From: Candidatus Moraniibacteriota bacterium
GTDB taxonomy: Bacteria; Patescibacteriota; Minisyncoccia; Moranbacterales; UBA1568
Reading direction: 5' to 3'
Length of the DNA stretch: 64,000 nucleotides
Assembly: GCA_052035095.1 (NCBI GenBank)
Contig: JBPOHW010000005.1
Coordinates: forward strand, 30,269-94,268
Shown here in pieces: positions 8,966 to 12,951 of the stretch. The notes under the pieces are model-generated. The model saw only the letters and a program-made list of their open reading frames with translations, did not search any database and was not told the DNA's origin. Within the stretch, counting starts at the first letter, position 1. Every line of letters starts with the position of its first letter. A program made the translations under genes and the position numbers.

Positions 8966-9040
8966 ATGTAAACGGTATCAGAAAAAAGGTATTTTTAAAA
9001 GCCCTGGGATTTCCAAGGCTTCTTATGCATTTGTGACCTG

Positions 9041-9361
9041 TTAGGTCGATTTTTCTTTTGAGGAACCTAAGTAGAGACAAATATACTCAGCTATTTTTCG
9101 GCATACAGCATCAAGGAGTGTAAAGCCAAGCTCTTGTAGAGCCACTCGGACTTCCTCAAGGCTCCCTACTGCAACGACACTTTCGGAAACTACTTCATAG
9201 TTTCCATACCCCCCATCTTCCAATCGAACTATTTCAATACTCGCATTGTCATCGGGTTTCAAAAGTCTCCCGACCCCAATATACGAAGTATTCGAAGGAT
9301 TGAGACCTCCTCCGACATCCACCACCTCTCCATCCTCAGACAAAAGAGTAAGACCGCACAT
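9041..9361 (-). CDS. Hypothetical small protein in a low-GC pocket
   Basis: 106-aa ORF in an AT-rich 600-bp stretch between pepA and csoR. No recognisable motif. Confidence 0.25.
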   Translation of the reverse strand: MCGLTLLSEDGEVVDVGGGLNPSNTSYIGVGRLLKPDDNASIEIVRLEDGGYGNYEVVSESVVAVGSLEEVRVALQELGFTLLDAVCRKIAEYICLYLGSSKEKST

Positions 9362-9558
9362 AAAATCTCTATTTCCCCATGTCGAATTGTTAAGGTTCTT
9401 CCCTTTCCGTTTTCTCCTCGACCAACATATTGACGCAAAAACGAACTCGTGTCAATACGACCCGTCAAAAATACCGATGGGATCCACATCGCTTCAAAAT
9501 GTTTGCGGTTATAGGAGCAAAACCTTGACAAGCATTCCTCGCGTGATAGTATAACCAC

Positions 9559-9576
9559 ATACCTCCCCCAGAGGTA
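9559..9576 (+). promoter_or_regulatory. Putative CsoR/RcnR-type operator (TACC-TCCCCCAG-AGGTA, a G/C-tract palindrome) about 30 bp upstream of csoR
   Basis: ATACCTCCCCCAGAGGTA is an inverted repeat of TACCTC/GAGGTA flanking a C5 tract. It resembles the TAC-N-G/C-tract-N-GTA operators described for CsoR/RcnR. A TAGTATAAC -10-like hexamer lies just upstream. Confidence 0.5.
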
Positions 9577-9604
9577 CAAGGATACCGTTCATCACGAAAC
9601 AGCT

Positions 9605-9883
9605 ATGCTCAATCAAGAGAACAAGAAAAAGATCACCATCGGTCTCAAGAAAGCATCGAGCCTTATTTCCAAGGTGATCGAAATGGTAGAAAAAGATCGC
9701 TACTGCATCGAGGTTATGCAGCAGAACCTCGCCGTAATAGGGCTCCTCCGATCGGCGCATGAAGAGCTTATGGCGAATCACCTCGATACGTGCTTCCGAT
9801 CAGCGCTCGTCTCCGGAAACAAAAAAAAGAAAGAGGCGATGGTCGAGGAAATACTCAAAGTAAACCGCTTCTACAATAAATAA
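9605..9883 (+). CDS. csoR: CsoR/RcnR-family metal-sensing transcriptional repressor
   Basis: IEMVEKDRYCIEVMQQNLAVIGLLRSAHEELMANHLDTCF is the characteristic DUF156 helix bundle with the conserved Cys and His metal ligands. Confidence 0.8.
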   Translation: MLNQENKKKITIGLKKASSLISKVIEMVEKDRYCIEVMQQNLAVIGLLRSAHEELMANHLDTCFRSALVSGNKKKKEAMVEEILKVNRFYNK

Positions 9884-9903
9884 TCCGCTCGTATCGCGCC
9901 CAT

Positions 9904-10560
9904 ATGGAACAAAACAAAAAAGATACCGATTCATGTTGCGCTGTTGTCGAAAAGAAAAAAACGAGCGGGATAGCGTTTGGTATTCTCTCCGGTCTCCTTC
10001 CGCATTCGTTCTGCGTCGCTTTTTTCGTCTTCTCAATCGTCGGCATAACGGCGGCGAGCGCCTTCTTCCGACAGTTTCTCCTCATCCCAAATCTCTTCCT
10101 CTGGCTCGTCGCGCTCTCGATCGCCCTTACCACTCTTTCCGCGATCATATTCCTCAAAAAAACCGACTGCCTCTGTTTTCCGGGAATCCGACGCAAATGG
10201 CGATACCTCTCCAGCCTTTACGGGACAGCCATCCTGACCAATCTCCTTCTCTTCTTTGTGATTTTCCCGCTCGCGACAAACGCCAATTTCTCACGAAATG
10301 AAAACGAAACGCCCGCTCACGCGAAATCCGGCACGCGTGCCGGTGAATCAAGGGCGACGACCGCGATCACGGTAGACATTCCCTGCTCGGGACACGCCCC
10401 GCTCGTCGCGGATGAAATTCGAAAGAATTTCCCATTCACTTCCGTCACCTTCACGCTGCCAAACCGATTCGAAATAACCTATAACCCCTTCGACACTTCT
10501 CCCGAAAAGATCCTCTCACTCGATCTCTTCAAGACATATCCGGCCCGAAAGACTCTTTAG
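9904..10560 (+). CDS. Membrane protein with MerT-like Cys-Cys TM region and C-terminal HMA-like (heavy-metal-associated-like) domain; putative metal transporter
   Basis: DSCCAVVEKK at the entry to TM1, four predicted TM helices, then TAITVDIPCSGHAPLVADEIRKN...VTFTL, a ferredoxin-like HMA-type fold with CSGH replacing the canonical CxxC. Directly downstream of csoR. Confidence 0.5.
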   Translation: MEQNKKDTDSCCAVVEKKKTSGIAFGILSGLLPHSFCVAFFVFSIVGITAASAFFRQFLLIPNLFLWLVALSIALTTLSAIIFLKKTDCLCFPGIRRKWRYLSSLYGTAILTNLLLFFVIFPLATNANFSRNENETPAHAKSGTRAGESRATTAITVDIPCSGHAPLVADEIRKNFPFTSVTFTLPNRFEITYNPFDTSPEKILSLDLFKTYPARKTL

Positions 10561-10649
10561 CGCCACTTTCCCACACGAAACCACTCCGAGAGTCTCCGTC
10601 GCGAAGGAGCGCTCATCGGGCGGCGATATAATTCATTAAGCGTCATACT

Positions 10650-10772
10650 ATGACAGAAGATGCAAGCCCCTGCGTCTGCAACTGCGGATGCCAAGGGAGT
10701 AAGAAATGCGCCTGCGGTCCGCAATGCACATGCGCCGAAAAATGCGCCTGCGAATGCACCCAGGAAGCCTAG
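10650..10772 (+). CDS. Metallothionein-like cysteine-rich peptide (40 aa, 11 Cys)
   Basis: Manual translation: MTEDASPCVCNCGCQGSKKCACGPQCTCAEKCACECTQEA*. It has CxC repeats throughout, lies between the CsoR-regulated membrane protein and a strong terminator, and was below the ORF-track length cutoff. Confidence 0.6.
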   Translation: MTEDASPCVCNCGCQGSKKCACGPQCTCAEKCACECTQEA

Positions 10773-10784
10773 CCAAAAAAAGAA

Positions 10785-10816
10785 AACACCGCCCGAAAAA
10801 AGCGGTGTTTTTTCAT
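10785..10816 (+). terminator. Rho-independent terminator ending the csoR-metallothionein unit
   Basis: ACACCGC-CCGAAAAAA-GCGGTGT stem-loop followed by TTTTTT. Confidence 0.65.
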
Positions 10817-10820
10817 CGAA

Positions 10821-10909
10821 GGCGGAGAGGCAGGGATTCGAACCCTGGAAGGGGTTTCCCCCTTAACACATTAGCAGTGTGCTGCTTTCAGCCACTCAGC
10901 CACCTCTCC
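10821..10909 (-). tRNA. tRNA-Ser (anticodon GCT), long variable arm, 3' CC encoded (no A)
   Basis: Manually folded: acceptor GGAGAGG/CCTCTCC, D-arm GCT-GAGTGGCTGAA-AGC, anticodon stem GCACA/TGTGT with loop CUGCUAA, long variable arm, T-arm CAGGG-TTCGAAT-CCCTG. The ORF-track ORF containing 'ERQGFEPW' is read-through of this tRNA. Confidence 0.85.
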
Positions 10910-11248
10910 TATTTCAGCTCTCAGTCGTCAGCTTTCGGCTTTCAGAAGAAGAGCTTCGTGATTGCCAGTGTATCATTGTGAAACACTCATTGGCAAGATA
11001 GGTTTTGAGGTATCTCGACCGGACAGATCCGGGCGTATCATTGGCAATGAGCGACCCTTGCAGAGATGGGAAAAATATGCTACACTCGCGGCAGTAGTAA
11101 GTTTCTCATCAGGTTTCTGGCGGAATCCCCTCCGATAATCGGGGTGGACGTTCTAAGGGCGAGATTTTCGAGCTTTTAGGGAAAGCGGGAGCAAACAGAG
11201 GAGAAGGTCGGCTTACTCGCGTTATTCTCTCAAAGAGAACGAAATTCT

Positions 11249-11566
11249 ATGGCACAGAAGCTCTACGTCGGAAACCTCTCGTATGGTACGACGGACGACA
11301 GCCTTCGCGACGCGTTCGCGCAGGCCGGTTCCGTTGCATCGGCGACCGTTATCACCGACCGCGCTACCGGCCGTTCGAAAGGCTTCGGCTTTGTCGAAAT
11401 GGCATCGGATGCGGATGCTGAAAAAGCAATCGCCATGTGGAACGGAAAGGATCTCGATGGTCGCACCCTCGTCGTGAACGAGGCGCGTCCGTTTGAACCC
11501 CGACCGCGCCAAGGCGGAAACGGCGGCGGATACTCCGACGGCGGCAACAACCGACGGGACTGGTAA
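11249..11566 (+). CDS. RRM-type glycine-rich RNA-binding protein
   Basis: LYVGNLSY (RNP-2) and KGFGFVEM (RNP-1) motifs, with a Gly-rich C-terminal tail. Confidence 0.85.
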   Translation: MAQKLYVGNLSYGTTDDSLRDAFAQAGSVASATVITDRATGRSKGFGFVEMASDADAEKAIAMWNGKDLDGRTLVVNEARPFEPRPRQGGNGGGYSDGGNNRRDW

Positions 11567-11593
11567 TTCTCTCCCGAAGTGTTGTGCGAAAAA

Positions 11594-11622
11594 CTCTCCC
11601 GAGCAATCGGGAGAGTTTTTTT
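11594..11622 (+). terminator. Rho-independent terminator after the RRM protein gene
   Basis: CTCTCCCGA-GCAA-TCGGGAGAG followed by TTTTTTTG. Confidence 0.65.
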
Positions 11623-11648
11623 GTATAAAAATCAATCAGTCCCATCGA

Positions 11649-11768
11649 GGACTTCCTCACTTTGATGCAGTTCGAGGAAAAACCAAGCACTGAAACGAGG
11701 TGTATGAGACATACTCCGAGTGAGGAGCGCAGGTTTTGACGAAGAAATGCGCAAAGTGAGGAAGTCCC
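11649..11768. repeat. Divergent copy (C) of the ~130-150-bp terminal-inverted-repeat element family (see 36621 and 60626)
   Basis: Shares internal blocks ATGCAGTTCGAGGAAAA and TTTTGACGAAGAAATGCGC with copies A and B. Its terminal inverted repeat is GGACTTCCTCACTTTG...CAAAGTGAGGAAGTCC, different in sequence from A/B but still perfectly self-complementary (compensatory changes). Confidence 0.6.
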
Positions 11769-11772
11769 ACCA

Positions 11773-12951
11773 TCAATAAATCACAATCGGAGTGCCTATG
11801 TCCGCCCACTCAAAGACTCGTTTCGCGGGACCGATGCCAAGACGGACGCAACCGTGCGACACGGGAATACCCAAATGATTCGTACCCTCTTTGTAGCCAC
11901 CGGGCCACTCGGGAAGCTCGTGAATGCCAAACTTCCCGCCGGGCACGATCGCCATCCAGTATGGCATATAGAGCCCATAGGTTTTGGACCAGGCGCGCGG
12001 CGTCTTGTTATGAATCGAAAATGTTCCCGTGGGCGTATCCATTCCTCGTTTTCCGGAAGAAATCATAAACGCGTCAAGTGCCGTCCCGTTTTCGAAAATC
12101 GTCATAACCTGACTCGAAATATTGACATCGATATACTTCCCCGTCGTTATCGCGGGATCCGTATAGCGCTTGGCCTCAAGGAGACGCGTCGGAAAATCCT
12201 TCGCCCACGCGGAGGGCTTGGGAGGGAGCGTTTCAAAACTTCCTTCATATATTTTTGCAAACGAATCATCACTCCCCTCGCGATGACGCGCGCGGACGAC
12301 GAGCGTATACCGCTTCCCCGACTGAATATCGCTCGGAAGAATACGAAATTCCGATTTCTCGGGATCGATTTCATAGACGATCGCTCCCGCGTCATTAAAA
12401 GAAAATTCGAGAAAAGAATCTTTTGCCGGCCGATCAAGCGTTACGACAACCGGATCCTCGGCGCCGAGAAGCACGTCTCTCGCGCCATCCTCGGGGGAAA
12501 CCGACGCGACCGAAGGCGGCGCCCATGTTTCAAAAACAAGCGTCGTCTCGGGAATCATTCCCAACCATCGCGTCTTCCCAGCGGGAAGCGACACCGTATA
12601 GCGCGTCCCAAATTCCCATTGAGACTTCGGTCGAATAAGAAGCTTCATGTCGTCATCCTTCCATTCAAAACTCATGTCGGCGGACGGGCTGACACGAATC
12701 CCCTCGACGAACCCTTCCGTCTTCACGGAAGAAAGAAAAACAATGCCGATCGCGCTCTCGGACTTCACATTCCCCACGGTCGTCAAATCAAGCTCCGGCC
12801 GCGTTTCGGTGATACGCGCGTAGGAACGAAATCCGTACACAAATCCCGCCGAAAGAAACAAGAGCACTATAGAAAGCGGGAGCGCGCTCCACCTTGTCCG
12901 CCCCTTACTCGCCCCTACCTTCCTCGCCCTCGATGAAAAATTGAAGTGCAT
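11773..12951 (-). CDS. L,D-transpeptidase (YkuD domain) with N-terminal TM anchor and Ig-like domains
   Basis: C-terminal HELPEWPGGYKEGTNHLGIPVSHGCVRL is the L,D-transpeptidase catalytic His/Cys motif. Confidence 0.8.
   Translation of the reverse strand: MHFNFSSRARKVGASKGRTRWSALPLSIVLLFLSAGFVYGFRSYARITETRPELDLTTVGNVKSESAIGIVFLSSVKTEGFVEGIRVSPSADMSFEWKDDDMKLLIRPKSQWEFGTRYTVSLPAGKTRWLGMIPETTLVFETWAPPSVASVSPEDGARDVLLGAEDPVVVTLDRPAKDSFLEFSFNDAGAIVYEIDPEKSEFRILPSDIQSGKRYTLVVRARHREGSDDSFAKIYEGSFETLPPKPSAWAKDFPTRLLEAKRYTDPAITTGKYIDVNISSQVMTIFENGTALDAFMISSGKRGMDTPTGTFSIHNKTPRAWSKTYGLYMPYWMAIVPGGKFGIHELPEWPGGYKEGTNHLGIPVSHGCVRLGIGPAKRVFEWADIGTPIVIY

Follow-up and report, generated by a model that had tools for sequence, protein, structure and literature searches.

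The 64,000-nucleotide stretch of DNA analysed here (the window) carries a cassette in the order promoter, palindrome (TACCTCCCCCAGAGGTA), CsoR repressor, HMA membrane protein, Cys-rich ORF and terminator. Its elements and immediate surroundings are as follows.

9525..9552, + strand: sigma-70-like operon promoter (TTGACA, 16 nt, TG-extended TAGTAT), 10/12 matches in a promoter scan
9560..9576, no strand assigned: CsoR-type operator, G/C-tract palindrome TACCTC-CCCCA-GAGGTA, a perfect 6+6 inverted repeat
9605..9883, + strand: CsoR-family metal-sensing repressor, 92 aa (Pfam PF02583, E = 2e-14)
9904..10560, + strand: membrane protein of 218 aa, three long helices followed by a C-terminal domain with the HMA fold (AF2 model)
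10650..10772, stop codon included, + strand: 40-aa metallothionein-like Cys-rich ORF (11 Cys), conserved at the same position in relatives
10660..10866, + strand: overlapping 68-aa ORF in another frame
10783..10816, no strand assigned: bidirectional intrinsic terminator, AAAACACCGC-N9-GCGGTGTTTT plus T-run (hairpin fold)
10821..10909, - strand: tRNA-Ser(GCT)

The 10650-10772(+) ORF begins with an ATG and encodes, in 40 codons, the peptide MTEDASPCVCNCGCQGSKKCACGPQCTCAEKCACECTQEA, in which 11 of the 40 residues (27.5%) are Cys, laid out as C8xC10xC12xC14, C20xC22, C26xC28 and C32xC34xC36. An in-frame stop lies 18 nt 5' of position 10650 and no ATG, GTG or TTG occurs between the two, so that the start is unambiguous. 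No Shine-Dalgarno motif precedes it; since SD-like motifs are found at only about 7 of the 43 long ORFs of the window, this is normal for the genome. The tryptic peptides expected from the 40-mer are MTEDASPCVCNCGCQGSK, CACGPQCTCAEK and CACECTQEA. Without metal, apo-metallothioneins are unstructured.

A preliminary description of this DNA had proposed a missed 40-codon Cys-rich ORF with a poor Shine-Dalgarno context, set between a metal-regulated gene and a terminator hairpin and lying in a different frame from a 10660..10866 ORF explained as tRNA read-through. ORF and Cys arrangement are exactly as it had them, the 68-aa frame does run antisense through tRNA-Ser(GCT), the hairpin is present 3' of the ORF at 10783-10811, and the metal-regulated neighbourhood can be sharpened to a CsoR-type copper-sensing operon.

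A predicted CsoR-type copper-sensing operon

The promoter at 9525-9552 is the top-scoring site within 9300-11300, and the operator, just 3' of its -10 box, is the one TACC-N9-GGTA site of the 64-kb window. Of 23 related genome loci, 20 have a box of this kind (TACCTACCCCCCAGGTA and variants) 5' of csoR, as do many loci from metagenomes. CsoR operators are described as G-tract pseudopalindromes (PMC3902906), and the RicR box is TACCCCGCTGGGTA (PMC3944814); the window site is such a G-tract pseudopalindrome and stands at csoR's own promoter. The repressor itself scores 54 bits against PF02583 (cut-off 22.8), and among solved structures it comes closest to M. tuberculosis CsoR (2hh7, E = 2e-10), with whose C36/H61/C65, Y35 and E81 its own C34/H59/C63, Y33 and E81/E82 align. 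The PF02583 fold, the x-C-H-C fingerprint and the second-shell Tyr and Glu of a Cu(I)-sensing CsoR are all in place. Among NCBIfam models the top match is RicR, under the RicR cut-off, followed by weak matches to FrmR and RcnR.

The terminator hairpin (10783-10811) has a perfect stem of 10 bp (12 bp when folded), a folding energy of -15 kcal/mol and a z-score of -4.4, and serves both strands, closing the operon (+) as well as the convergent tRNA-Ser (-). No internal terminator was found within the operon, and an Rfam scan of 9000-12000 returned nothing above threshold except the tRNA. The 89-nt spacer before the Cys-rich ORF, with a TATAAT-like hexamer at 10628-10633, would leave room for a promoter of its own. 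It holds no promoter-scan site, no second CsoR box and no significant RNA structure (z = -1.4), which leaves an independent promoter or operator unsupported. A leader peptide or attenuator was also rejected, given that only the terminator and the convergent tRNA lie downstream. Other neighbours in the window encode an M17 peptidase, an RRM protein and a YkuD transpeptidase; such flanks vary by lineage, conservation around the ORF being limited to csoR and the membrane protein. Taken as a whole, this arrangement assigns the Cys-rich ORF to a predicted CsoR-type copper-sensing operon.

Conservation and coding character of the Cys-rich ORF

Among ATG ORFs of at least 30 aa in the 64-kb window, only 10650-10772 reaches 20% Cys. 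In 200 first-order Markov simulations of the whole window, Cys fractions peaked at 18%, short of the 20% mark in every run; the Cys content of the ORF is far above chance.

Relatives carry Cys-rich ORFs of 26-61 aa at the same place, amounting to 54 distinct peptides at 65 loci, each with an ATG start. When genome contigs were scanned for the cassette, a single membrane-protein query gave no relatives, whereas an alignment-based scan did. A terminator hairpin and T-run comparable to those of the window lie 3' of all 23 related ORFs inspected in genome contigs, and the ORF is kept intact in relatives whose neighbouring membrane protein is just 40-50% identical.

Frameshifts or stops in relatives, or Cys positions that drift, are what the preliminary description had named as evidence against a real missed gene; comparison with relatives favours the gene. 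More specifically, the sense frame is open in 54/54 distinct peptides, compared with 29/54 for the +1 frame and 2/54 for the +2 frame. The three antisense frames are likewise open in 45-51 of the 54 as a by-product of codon composition, so that the strand is called from start, stop, terminator and pN/pS. In the sense frame, pooled pN/pS comes to 0.20, the lowest of six; the other five range from 0.32 to 2.3, with 1.1-1.2 for the +1 and +2 frames. Pooled substitutions at codon positions 1, 2 and 3 number 63, 38 and 143, and pairwise dN/dS among close pairs is 0.09-0.23 (one pair, L023/L041, was left out because an indel shifts its register). All aligned Cys are kept in the four close pairs compared residue by residue, TGT and TGC interchanging synonymously, and the alignment of relatives contains six invariant and four nearly invariant Cys columns. 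Contigs of the same species differ by S6N, K18R and synonymous changes only, while across the lineages that conserve the ORF synonymous change is saturated. These results show that purifying selection acts on the sense frame, and comparative sequence evidence marks 10650-10772(+) as a genuine conserved protein-coding gene.

An HMM made from the 53 remaining peptides gives the window peptide 21.8 bits, compared with -5.4 +/- 4.6 bits for composition-preserving shuffles (0 of 2000 match the real score). Shuffling only the non-Cys residues leaves the score unchanged (21.2 +/- 2.4). The similarity to the family thus lies entirely in Cys spacing, and orthology rests on synteny.

Protein databases hold almost nothing of this family. 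None of 10 members looked up is present in a 15-billion-protein collection; an exact look-up and a word-index search with the window peptide gave no record and no match, and phmmer, run exhaustively over 1.84 billion representatives, returned 0 matches. A profile search (alignment A2) returned one match (E = 5.5e-3), to P0037, a relative that had been called as a gene and carries an N-terminal extension. Gene callers predict spurious overlapping frames in sister contigs. Because the peptides are short, uncalled as genes and subject to HMMER's composition bias correction, empty homology searches are not evidence of absence. A widespread family has been almost entirely missed by gene finders and protein databases.

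Metallothionein character, the third slot and the membrane protein

Across the 54 peptides (26-61 aa), Cys makes up 31% of residues, Lys 18% and Gly 11.5%; Phe, Trp, Tyr and Leu are absent from all of them and His accounts for 0.2%. CxC occurs in 54/54 and CxCxCxC in 50/54. Small size, about 15-35% Cys, conserved Cys in CxC, CxxC or CC motifs and scarcity of aromatics and His are sequence traits of the metallothionein class (small, Cys-rich metal-thiolate cluster proteins), and all are found here; the metallothionein-type Cys composition claimed earlier holds for the window peptide and extends to its family. We use the term metallothionein as a compositional and contextual assignment, under which the peptide would bind metal.

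Neither the window peptide nor the family profile has a significant match in Pfam, NCBIfam or the PDB, and similarity to described metallothioneins stays below significance (Pfam E >= 0.43, PDB E >= 5). The bacterial family PF02069 (Metallothio_Pro) matches neither the window peptide nor 23 relatives, even at E <= 10, and the PDB searches did not return 1JJD. None of the eukaryotic metallothionein families in Pfam (PF00131, PF01439, PF02067 and others) matches significantly. The only one touched is PF02067 (Metallothio_5), which 4 of 23 members, the window peptide not among them, reach at E >= 0.43; the only PDB match of the window peptide is the Neurospora crassa copper metallothionein 1t2y (E = 5.4), and that of the family profile is a snail cadmium metallothionein (E = 8.5). 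Low-complexity sequences rich in Cys reach such scores by chance. On sequence, with MymT compared by description only, the peptide lies outside all described metallothionein families searched.

In 56 of the 57 loci bearing the Cys-rich ORF, csoR is directly upstream, and in sister operons a copper P1B-ATPase (CopA) fills the third slot. In ORF-less loci, the next gene scores 563 and 582 bits against the NCBIfam copper-ATPase model TIGR01511 (cut-off 397), and this alternative cargo scores higher on the copper-ATPase model than on the Cd/Zn model. CopA occupies the third slot in 0/57 loci with the ORF compared with 57/86 without it (Fisher p = 2e-18). The two never share the slot and represent mutually exclusive layouts. 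Two ORF-bearing loci also carry a divergent P-type ATPase, so that 'instead of efflux' fails for some genomes.

At every locus the membrane protein is present as the invariant neighbour. Its AF2 model (pLDDT 80) places behind the three long helices a C-terminal domain resembling ATP7B, Menkes MBD4, MerP and HAH1, with target-normalised TM-scores of 0.7-0.8. No Pfam family matches it at E <= 1 and no NCBIfam family at E <= 0.001; the MerT (Pfam) and MerTP (NCBIfam NF033556) profiles leave it unmatched. Invariant residues, taken from an alignment of 26 homologues, include an N-terminal CC, a PHSFC motif within helix 1 and, in the HMA loop, IPCSGHAPL, and K+R counts suggest that the N-terminus faces inside and the HMA domain outside. 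Homologues number 36, those named by source being Patescibacteria, and the protein is common to Patescibacteria and DPANN archaea; one homologue (L063, Woesearchaeota) has its HMA domain extended by a fused tail rich in Cys and Gly. We regard this protein as a candidate new metal-handling component.

Proposed function, alternatives and known systems

We consider it likely that 10650-10772(+) is a metallothionein-like peptide gene, the last cistron of a three-gene copper-responsive operon of an ultra-small bacterium (Patescibacteria), serving copper-induced cytosolic sequestration of Cu(I) by thiolates. We infer its transcription, regulation and translation, and the metal binding, stoichiometry, copper specificity and possible hand-off with the membrane protein, along the following lines. 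At low copper, a CsoR tetramer would sit on the palindrome at 9560-9576, 3' of the -10 box, and block transcription; Cu(I) bound at Cys34/His59/Cys63 would release CsoR from the DNA, allowing a single transcript that starts near 9555 and ends at the terminator near 10816. The peptide would be translated without a Shine-Dalgarno sequence from an A/U-rich, mostly unstructured start region. Its 11 thiolates, in CxC and CxCxCxC motifs, would then wrap a Cu(I)-thiolate cluster, probably of 6-8 Cu(I) by analogy with copper metallothioneins of 7-10 Cys, and this cluster would buffer cytosolic copper. With the CopA exporter in the same slot of sister lineages, sequestration may replace or complement efflux, the HMA membrane protein being a partner common to both layouts. 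Copper as the metal is suggested by the regulator and the alternation with CopA.

Alternatively, instead of being a sink, the peptide could act with the HMA membrane protein as its chaperone or relay partner, in a cassette that imports and immobilises extracellular copper. Metal would pass to or from the Cys/His relay (CC, PHSFC, CSGH) much as from MerP via MerT to a cytosolic acceptor. The invariant pairing, three helices with an HMA fold that also matches MerP, the suggested topology and the fused tail in Woesearchaeota are all consistent with such a route. However, the MerT and MerTP models do not match the membrane protein, its pairing with the exporter CopA suits a CopZ- or CupA-like donor better than an importer, and 11 Cys in 40 residues far exceeds what a one-site chaperone needs. 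We consider this reading unlikely.

It is somewhat less probable again that the peptide handles Zn(II), Cd(II) or some other thiophilic metal as a metallothionein, or acts as a general buffer for thiols, persulfide or redox, under a CsoR-family regulator that senses a signal other than Cu(I). CxC-type metallothioneins bind Zn and Cd besides Cu. The CsoR family includes Ni/Co, formaldehyde and sulfur/persulfide sensors, in line with the weak FrmR and RcnR matches, and a sulfur-oxidation member has been reported (PMC10318464). Against this stand the full Cu(I) C-H-C set with second-shell Tyr and Glu, RicR as top NCBIfam match, the G-tract CsoR-type operator, an alternative cargo above the copper-ATPase cut-off that beats the Cd/Zn model, and a family almost without His.

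A precursor of a RiPP or secreted Cys-rich peptide (sactipeptide, ranthipeptide or lanthipeptide-like) would, as many RiPP precursors are, be short, Cys-rich and unannotated. We judge it very improbable: genes for a radical-SAM enzyme, YcaO, lanthionine synthetase, protease or exporter are missing from the window neighbourhood, csoR and the membrane protein are the sole conserved neighbours of the ORF, and the peptide has neither leader/core organisation nor signal peptide, its Cys being spread over the whole length. Least credible of all is a chance or non-coding frame in a GC-rich pre-terminator spacer, or a real gene that overlaps the ORF (10660-10866(+) or antisense): a mere 40 codons, the missing Shine-Dalgarno, the open antisense frames and the overlapping frames chosen by gene callers in sister contigs speak for it, but simulations never match the Cys content, the 10660-10866 ORF crosses a tRNA gene on the other strand, and conservation across lineages with saturated synonymous change, the sense-frame minimum of pN/pS and the often closed +1 and mostly closed +2 frames refute it as far as sequence analysis goes.

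Building on the proposed copper sequestration by a metallothionein-like peptide, we tentatively raise a broader possibility, which is well short of established. Patescibacteria may hold a large, essentially unannotated and independently arisen family of eukaryote-like CxC metallothioneins in CopA's slot of the CsoR operon, working with an undescribed three-helix HMA membrane protein common to CPR bacteria and DPANN/Methanofastidiosa archaea; some ultra-small cells would then capture and sequester copper, by a MerT/MerP-like relay to a thiolate sink, rather than export it by ATP-driven efflux. If so, bacterial metallothioneins are far commoner than the two accepted families suggest. They are considered rare, and reviews name SmtA with its homologues and MymT (PMC7558416, PMC11672702); a family of at least 54 peptides bears on whether they are truly scarce or simply missed by annotation, and would add a third bacterial family. 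It also offers a concrete example of how genes of fewer than 50 codons are systematically lost in MAG annotation, and a natural experiment in sequestration versus efflux, within the same operon slot of minimal-genome organisms. As presumptive very compact metal binders, the peptides may interest bioremediation or biosensing.

Among bacterial systems, BmtA/SmtA (PF02069; PDB 1JJD) resembles the proposed one in cytosolic Cys-rich metal sequestration induced via a dedicated repressor, and differs in that the window family has no PF02069 match. SmtA has His ligands, binds mainly Zn and is controlled by the ArsR-family SmtB, not CsoR. Its fold is zinc-finger-like (PMC7558416).

Eukaryotic CxC copper metallothioneins (Neurospora crassa 1t2y, yeast Cup1, snail and insect proteins) share the repeated CxC, the Gly/Lys/Ser/Asn spacers and the lack of aromatics. 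Their gene context is unrelated to a prokaryotic operon under CsoR control, and the resemblance is most simply convergent.

The classical csoR-copZ-copA (Bacillus) and copY-cupA-copA (Streptococcus) operons have the same plan of repressor, small copper-binding accessory and cargo, and sister loci of the window cassette do carry copA third. In the window, however, the cargo is a 40-aa thiolate peptide as opposed to a pump of ~730-780 aa. The accessory protein combines an HMA fold, as in CopZ, with membrane anchoring, as in CupA (both described in PMC7558416), but has three membrane helices, a CSGH loop rather than GMxCxxC and no known family.

The closest functional and regulatory analogue, by description and not by sequence, is MymT, likewise a small, annotation-missed Cys-rich ORF under a CsoR-family repressor and palindrome. 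MymT contains His and mixed Cys motifs, whereas the window family is purely of CxC type with essentially no His. Copper resistance requires this 4.9 kDa Cys-rich Cu(I) metallothionein, which stems from a small ORF that had gone unannotated and has a predicted capacity of up to six Cu(I) (PMC7558416). Its repressor, acting via a TACCC...GGGTA-type palindrome, is the CsoR paralogue RicR, in whose regulon mymT, reported only from pathogenic mycobacteria, is listed as a separate locus (PMC3944814). The window gene, by comparison, comes third in the operon to which the repressor itself belongs, and its family is spread across Patescibacteria.

The reading frame and its cassette

The cysteine-rich open reading frame (ORF) starts with ATG and comprises 40 codons and a stop (translation MTEDASPCVCNCGCQGSKKCACGPQCTCAEKCACECTQEA). 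Its 11 cysteines (27.5%; positions 8, 10, 12, 14, 20, 22, 26, 28, 32, 34 and 36) follow the CxCxCxC / CxC / CxC / CxCxC arrangement given in the preliminary description, and its frame is indeed separate from that of the 68-aa ORF at 10660-10866, which crosses tRNA-Ser(GCT) antisense. The start is fixed by an in-frame stop 18 nt upstream, since no other start codon occurs between this stop and the ATG. The missing Shine-Dalgarno motif is uninformative, since only about 7 of the 43 long ORFs of the window are preceded by one. A perfect TATAAT hexamer (10628-10633) is located 17 nt 5' of the ATG with no good -35 element; if active, it would produce a nearly leaderless second transcript, independent of CsoR.

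Features of the cassette and its flank (window positions)
9525-9552: promoter-like site ahead of csoR (TTGACA, 16 nt, TG-extended TAGTAT), the best of the region
9560-9576: perfect palindrome TACCTC-CCCCA-GAGGTA, directly after the promoter-like site
9605-9883, + strand: CsoR/RcnR-family repressor, 92 aa (Pfam PF02583, E = 2e-14)
9904-10560, + strand: membrane protein, 218 aa, without Pfam or NCBIfam match
10650-10772, + strand: Cys-rich ORF
10783-10811: terminator hairpin, followed by a T-run, 10 nt after the stop codon (-15 kcal/mol, z = -4.4)
10821-10909, - strand: tRNA-Ser(GCT), convergent to the Cys-rich ORF

In the window (about 50% GC), this is the sole ATG-started ORF of at least 30 aa to reach 20% Cys. 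The highest Cys fraction in 200 first-order Markov simulations was 18%. The proposed ORF is confirmed and is more than a chance occurrence.

Gaps of 20 nt and 89 nt separate csoR from the membrane gene and the membrane gene from the Cys-rich ORF, with no convincing terminator between the three genes; the 89-nt spacer does not fold significantly. The downstream hairpin, matched in folding by 0 of 200 shuffles, can serve as terminator for the + strand transcript and also for the convergent tRNA. The suggested setting between a metal-regulated gene and a terminator holds, with a CsoR-family repressor upstream and this hairpin downstream. The repressor aligns best to Mycobacterium tuberculosis CsoR (2hh7, E = 2e-10): Cys34/His59/Cys63 correspond to Cys36/His61/Cys65, the Cu(I) ligands of CsoR, and Tyr33 and Glu81/82 to its second-shell Tyr35 and Glu81. 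The palindrome is the single TACC-N9-GGTA site in the 64-kb window. One source describes CsoR operators as G-tract pseudopalindromes (PMC3902906), and the RicR box is TACCCCGCTGGGTA (PMC3944814).

Beyond the terminator, same-species sister strains (L001 3924-5640, L002-L005 likewise) carry an insertion of about 1.2 kb that is absent from the window strain (10821-11050). It lies exactly at the 3' end of tRNA-Ser(GCT), with a few bases around window 10821-10826 duplicated, and contains a DUF5677 gene, with a GIY-YIG gene and small ORFs nearby. The insertion resembles a small integrative element, or a variable island, occupying a tRNA attachment site.

Conservation, selection and missed annotation

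With the peptide as query, a word-index search, an exhaustive phmmer search and an exact look-up returned nothing. Because direct protein searches were blind, relatives were reached through the neighbouring membrane protein; alignment-based scans with it yielded 80 genome loci and, with 385 metagenome stretches matching in total, 80 metagenome loci. Where the membrane protein is identical or near-identical (L001-L010, L095), the Cys-rich ORF is intact: beside synonymous changes there are three versions of the peptide (S6N, K18R), none of them altering a Cys. Different Cys-rich ORFs occupy the same place in two lineages in which the membrane protein shares only about 48-50% identity. Overall, 23 genome loci have such an ORF directly 3' of the membrane gene, as do 42 metagenome loci, in one of which a contig end truncates it; the 65 loci with a complete ORF, window included, yield 54 distinct peptides.

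These peptides range in length from 26 to 61 aa and contain 9-21 Cys, and each begins at an ATG followed by a short Lys/Glu-rich head. Many share the C-terminal ending CxCGP(D/E)CxCGCNK, the counterpart of which is KKCACGPQCTC in the window peptide versus KKCTCGPECEC in locus L020. In all 23 peptide-bearing genome loci csoR immediately precedes the membrane gene, and a clear hairpin with T-run follows the ORF; a TACC-N9-GGTA box, typically TACCTACCCCCCAGGTA, precedes csoR in 20 of them, and metagenome loci agree. One Paceibacterota MAG (L021 1379-1531, - strand) has a second small Cys-rich ORF, MEQKKCKKCDMPLDKPEDKCSCADDLCVYCCECEEECNCGCKKK, on the opposite strand about 0.7 kb upstream of csoR. 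In a Minisyncoccia MAG, a convergent DUF305 gene (PF03713; L011 3907-4359, - strand) follows the cassette; DUF305 is linked to copper resistance, and the gene may be part of a larger copper island there.

Selection tests favour coding in the sense frame. In 12 close pairs, substitutions by sense codon position numbered 63/38/143, and pooled pN/pS was 0.20, compared with 0.32 (an antisense frame sharing wobble positions), 1.10, 1.17, 1.25 and 2.32 in the other five frames. Individual pairs gave dN/dS of 0.09-0.23 with dS near saturation; TGT and TGC replace one another, but every aligned Cys is retained. All 54 peptides have an open sense frame, compared with 2 of 54 for the +2 frame; antisense frames are often open because of codon composition, so that the strand is assigned from start, stop, terminator and pN/pS.

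Against an HMM of the other 53 peptides the window peptide scored 21.8 bits, a value reached by 0 of 2000 composition-preserving shuffles (-5.4 +/- 4.6 bits). Shuffling only the non-Cys residues gave 21.2 +/- 2.4 bits, so the signal common to the family is Cys spacing, as is usual for metallothioneins. Orthology of the window peptide to the family is supported mainly by synteny. Taken together, we regard the ORF as almost certainly a real gene, which leaves very little room for a chance ORF.

The family falls outside every Pfam and NCBIfam model, and 0 of 10 members were present in a collection of 15 billion proteins. One relative, P0037, does have a gene call, labelled 'hypothetical protein' and spuriously extended at the N-terminus. 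On sister contigs gene callers predict overlapping out-of-frame or antisense ORFs and leave the real 40-49-codon gene uncalled, a systematic annotation error.

Spurious overlapping calls
L001: 3660-3962, - strand
L002: 3757-3966, + strand
L006-L010: ORFs of 63-64 aa
L013: 3728-3871, + strand

The membrane protein and its alternation with CopA

Named-source homologues of the membrane protein come from Patescibacteria (Paceibacterota, Minisyncoccia), the best near 50% identity. Its AF2 model (pLDDT 80) has long helices at 23-54, 64-86 and 99-126 and a C-terminal beta-alpha-beta-beta-alpha-beta domain, which compares with the HMA domains of ATP7B, Menkes protein, MerP and HAH1 at target-normalised TM-scores of 0.7-0.8. 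An N-terminal CC, PHSFC in helix 1 and the HMA metal loop IPCSGHA (IPCSGHAPL in fuller form) are invariant or nearly so. K+R counts (N-terminus 4.3, loop 1 1.4, loop 2 2.8) suggest an internal N-terminus and an external HMA domain. In logic the protein is akin to a MerT-MerP fusion, or to CopZ or CupA anchored in the membrane; none of the MerT/MerP, CopZ or CupA profiles in Pfam and NCBIfam matched.

The family is common to CPR bacteria and to DPANN, Methanofastidiosa and Micrarchaeota archaea at 35-50% identity, possibly through inter-domain transfer. Its gene (window 9904-10560, loci L015-L174) is usually beside copA, and the protein is apparently a widespread, uncharacterised copper-handling component. 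In a Woesearchaeota MAG (JABGUJ010000001.1; L063 2501-3292) the homologue extends past the HMA domain as a fused Cys/Gly-rich tail with 8 Cys, SSCGGGCGGSGGGCGSSCGGSCGGSCGGSGSCGGKL, a Rosetta-stone hint that a thiolate-rich segment may work next to this domain. Elsewhere (L149, L161, L162 from 2236, L030 from 760) a different conserved Cys-containing ORF, ...MCYLGAWVFEEGTCKCEEMIEKGEFDKVCPECKKG..., follows the membrane gene; it is not metallothionein-type, and in L030 it lies within a 121-aa protein with an N-terminal membrane helix. Several Methanofastidiosa MAGs (L083, L086, L088, L090, L091, L093; about 1000-1550, + strand) encode, upstream of the membrane-protein gene, a conserved protein of about 175-185 aa whose N-terminus forms a membrane helix, whose middle is coiled-coil-like and whose C-terminus is rich in Cys and Tyr (YCSCGYYKYYCxCNGYCYYDWYCPSSCSCCYT..C.NC).

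Where the peptide is absent, the gene after the membrane protein usually starts with an HMA domain (GMxCxxC). The two full-length downstream genes tested, including that of cultured Minisyncoccus archaeiphilus, scored 563 and 582 bits on TIGR01511, the NCBIfam copper-translocating P-type ATPase (cut-off 397). Among 143 loci with enough downstream sequence, drawn from partly redundant genome and metagenome collections, peptide and downstream CopA were mutually exclusive (0/57 versus 57/86; Fisher p = 2e-18). Two loci, L019 and L022, carry a divergently transcribed P-type ATPase in addition to the peptide; the swap therefore concerns the operon slot but does not necessarily extend to the whole genome. 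Neither a P-type ATPase nor a further HMA motif occurs in the 64-kb window.

Proposed function and known systems

Family composition (31% Cys, 18% Lys, 11.5% Gly, 11% Glu, 0.2% His; no Phe, Trp, Tyr or Leu) is a textbook metallothionein signature. Together with CsoR control and alternation with CopA, it makes a copper-induced cytosolic Cu(I)-thiolate buffer the best-supported model, and we hold this full copper-sequestering reading to be probable. Cu(I) binding would cause CsoR to leave its operator, a tricistronic mRNA would be made and translated, and the peptide would fold around a Cu(I) cluster of perhaps 6-8 Cu(I) per 11 Cys, an estimate by analogy with known Cu-metallothioneins. Among the alternatives, a function as relay partner or chaperone of the membrane protein is unlikely, a role with another metal or in redox chemistry somewhat less likely still, and a RiPP precursor, like a chance ORF, very unlikely. 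The metallothionein-type interpretation first offered for this gene is supported. What the analysis demonstrates are the features of the sequence, its conservation and the selection on it, the cassette architecture and the folds; regulation, translation, binding of metal, specificity for copper and any joint action with the membrane protein we infer.

A full-text literature search, of incomplete coverage, linking metallothionein with Patescibacteria, CPR or Parcubacteria gave nothing relevant, and an earlier description is possible; we rate the peptides as a family that is new among bacterial metallothionein-type proteins and sits in an operon layout that is likewise new. Membership in BmtA/SmtA was rejected (no PF02069 match). 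Likeness to eukaryotic CxC metallothioneins is at chance level (Neurospora 1t2y, E = 5.4; snail Cd-MT, E = 8.5; Pfam Metallothio_5, E = 0.43) and is best read as convergence. By description, the nearest functional analogue is MymT, a 4.9-kDa Cu(I) metallothionein whose ORF had escaped annotation (PMC7558416) and which is repressed by the CsoR paralogue RicR via a palindromic motif (PMC3944814). The cassette follows the same operon logic as csoR-copZ-copA and copY-cupA-copA, with the difference that its pump is replaced.
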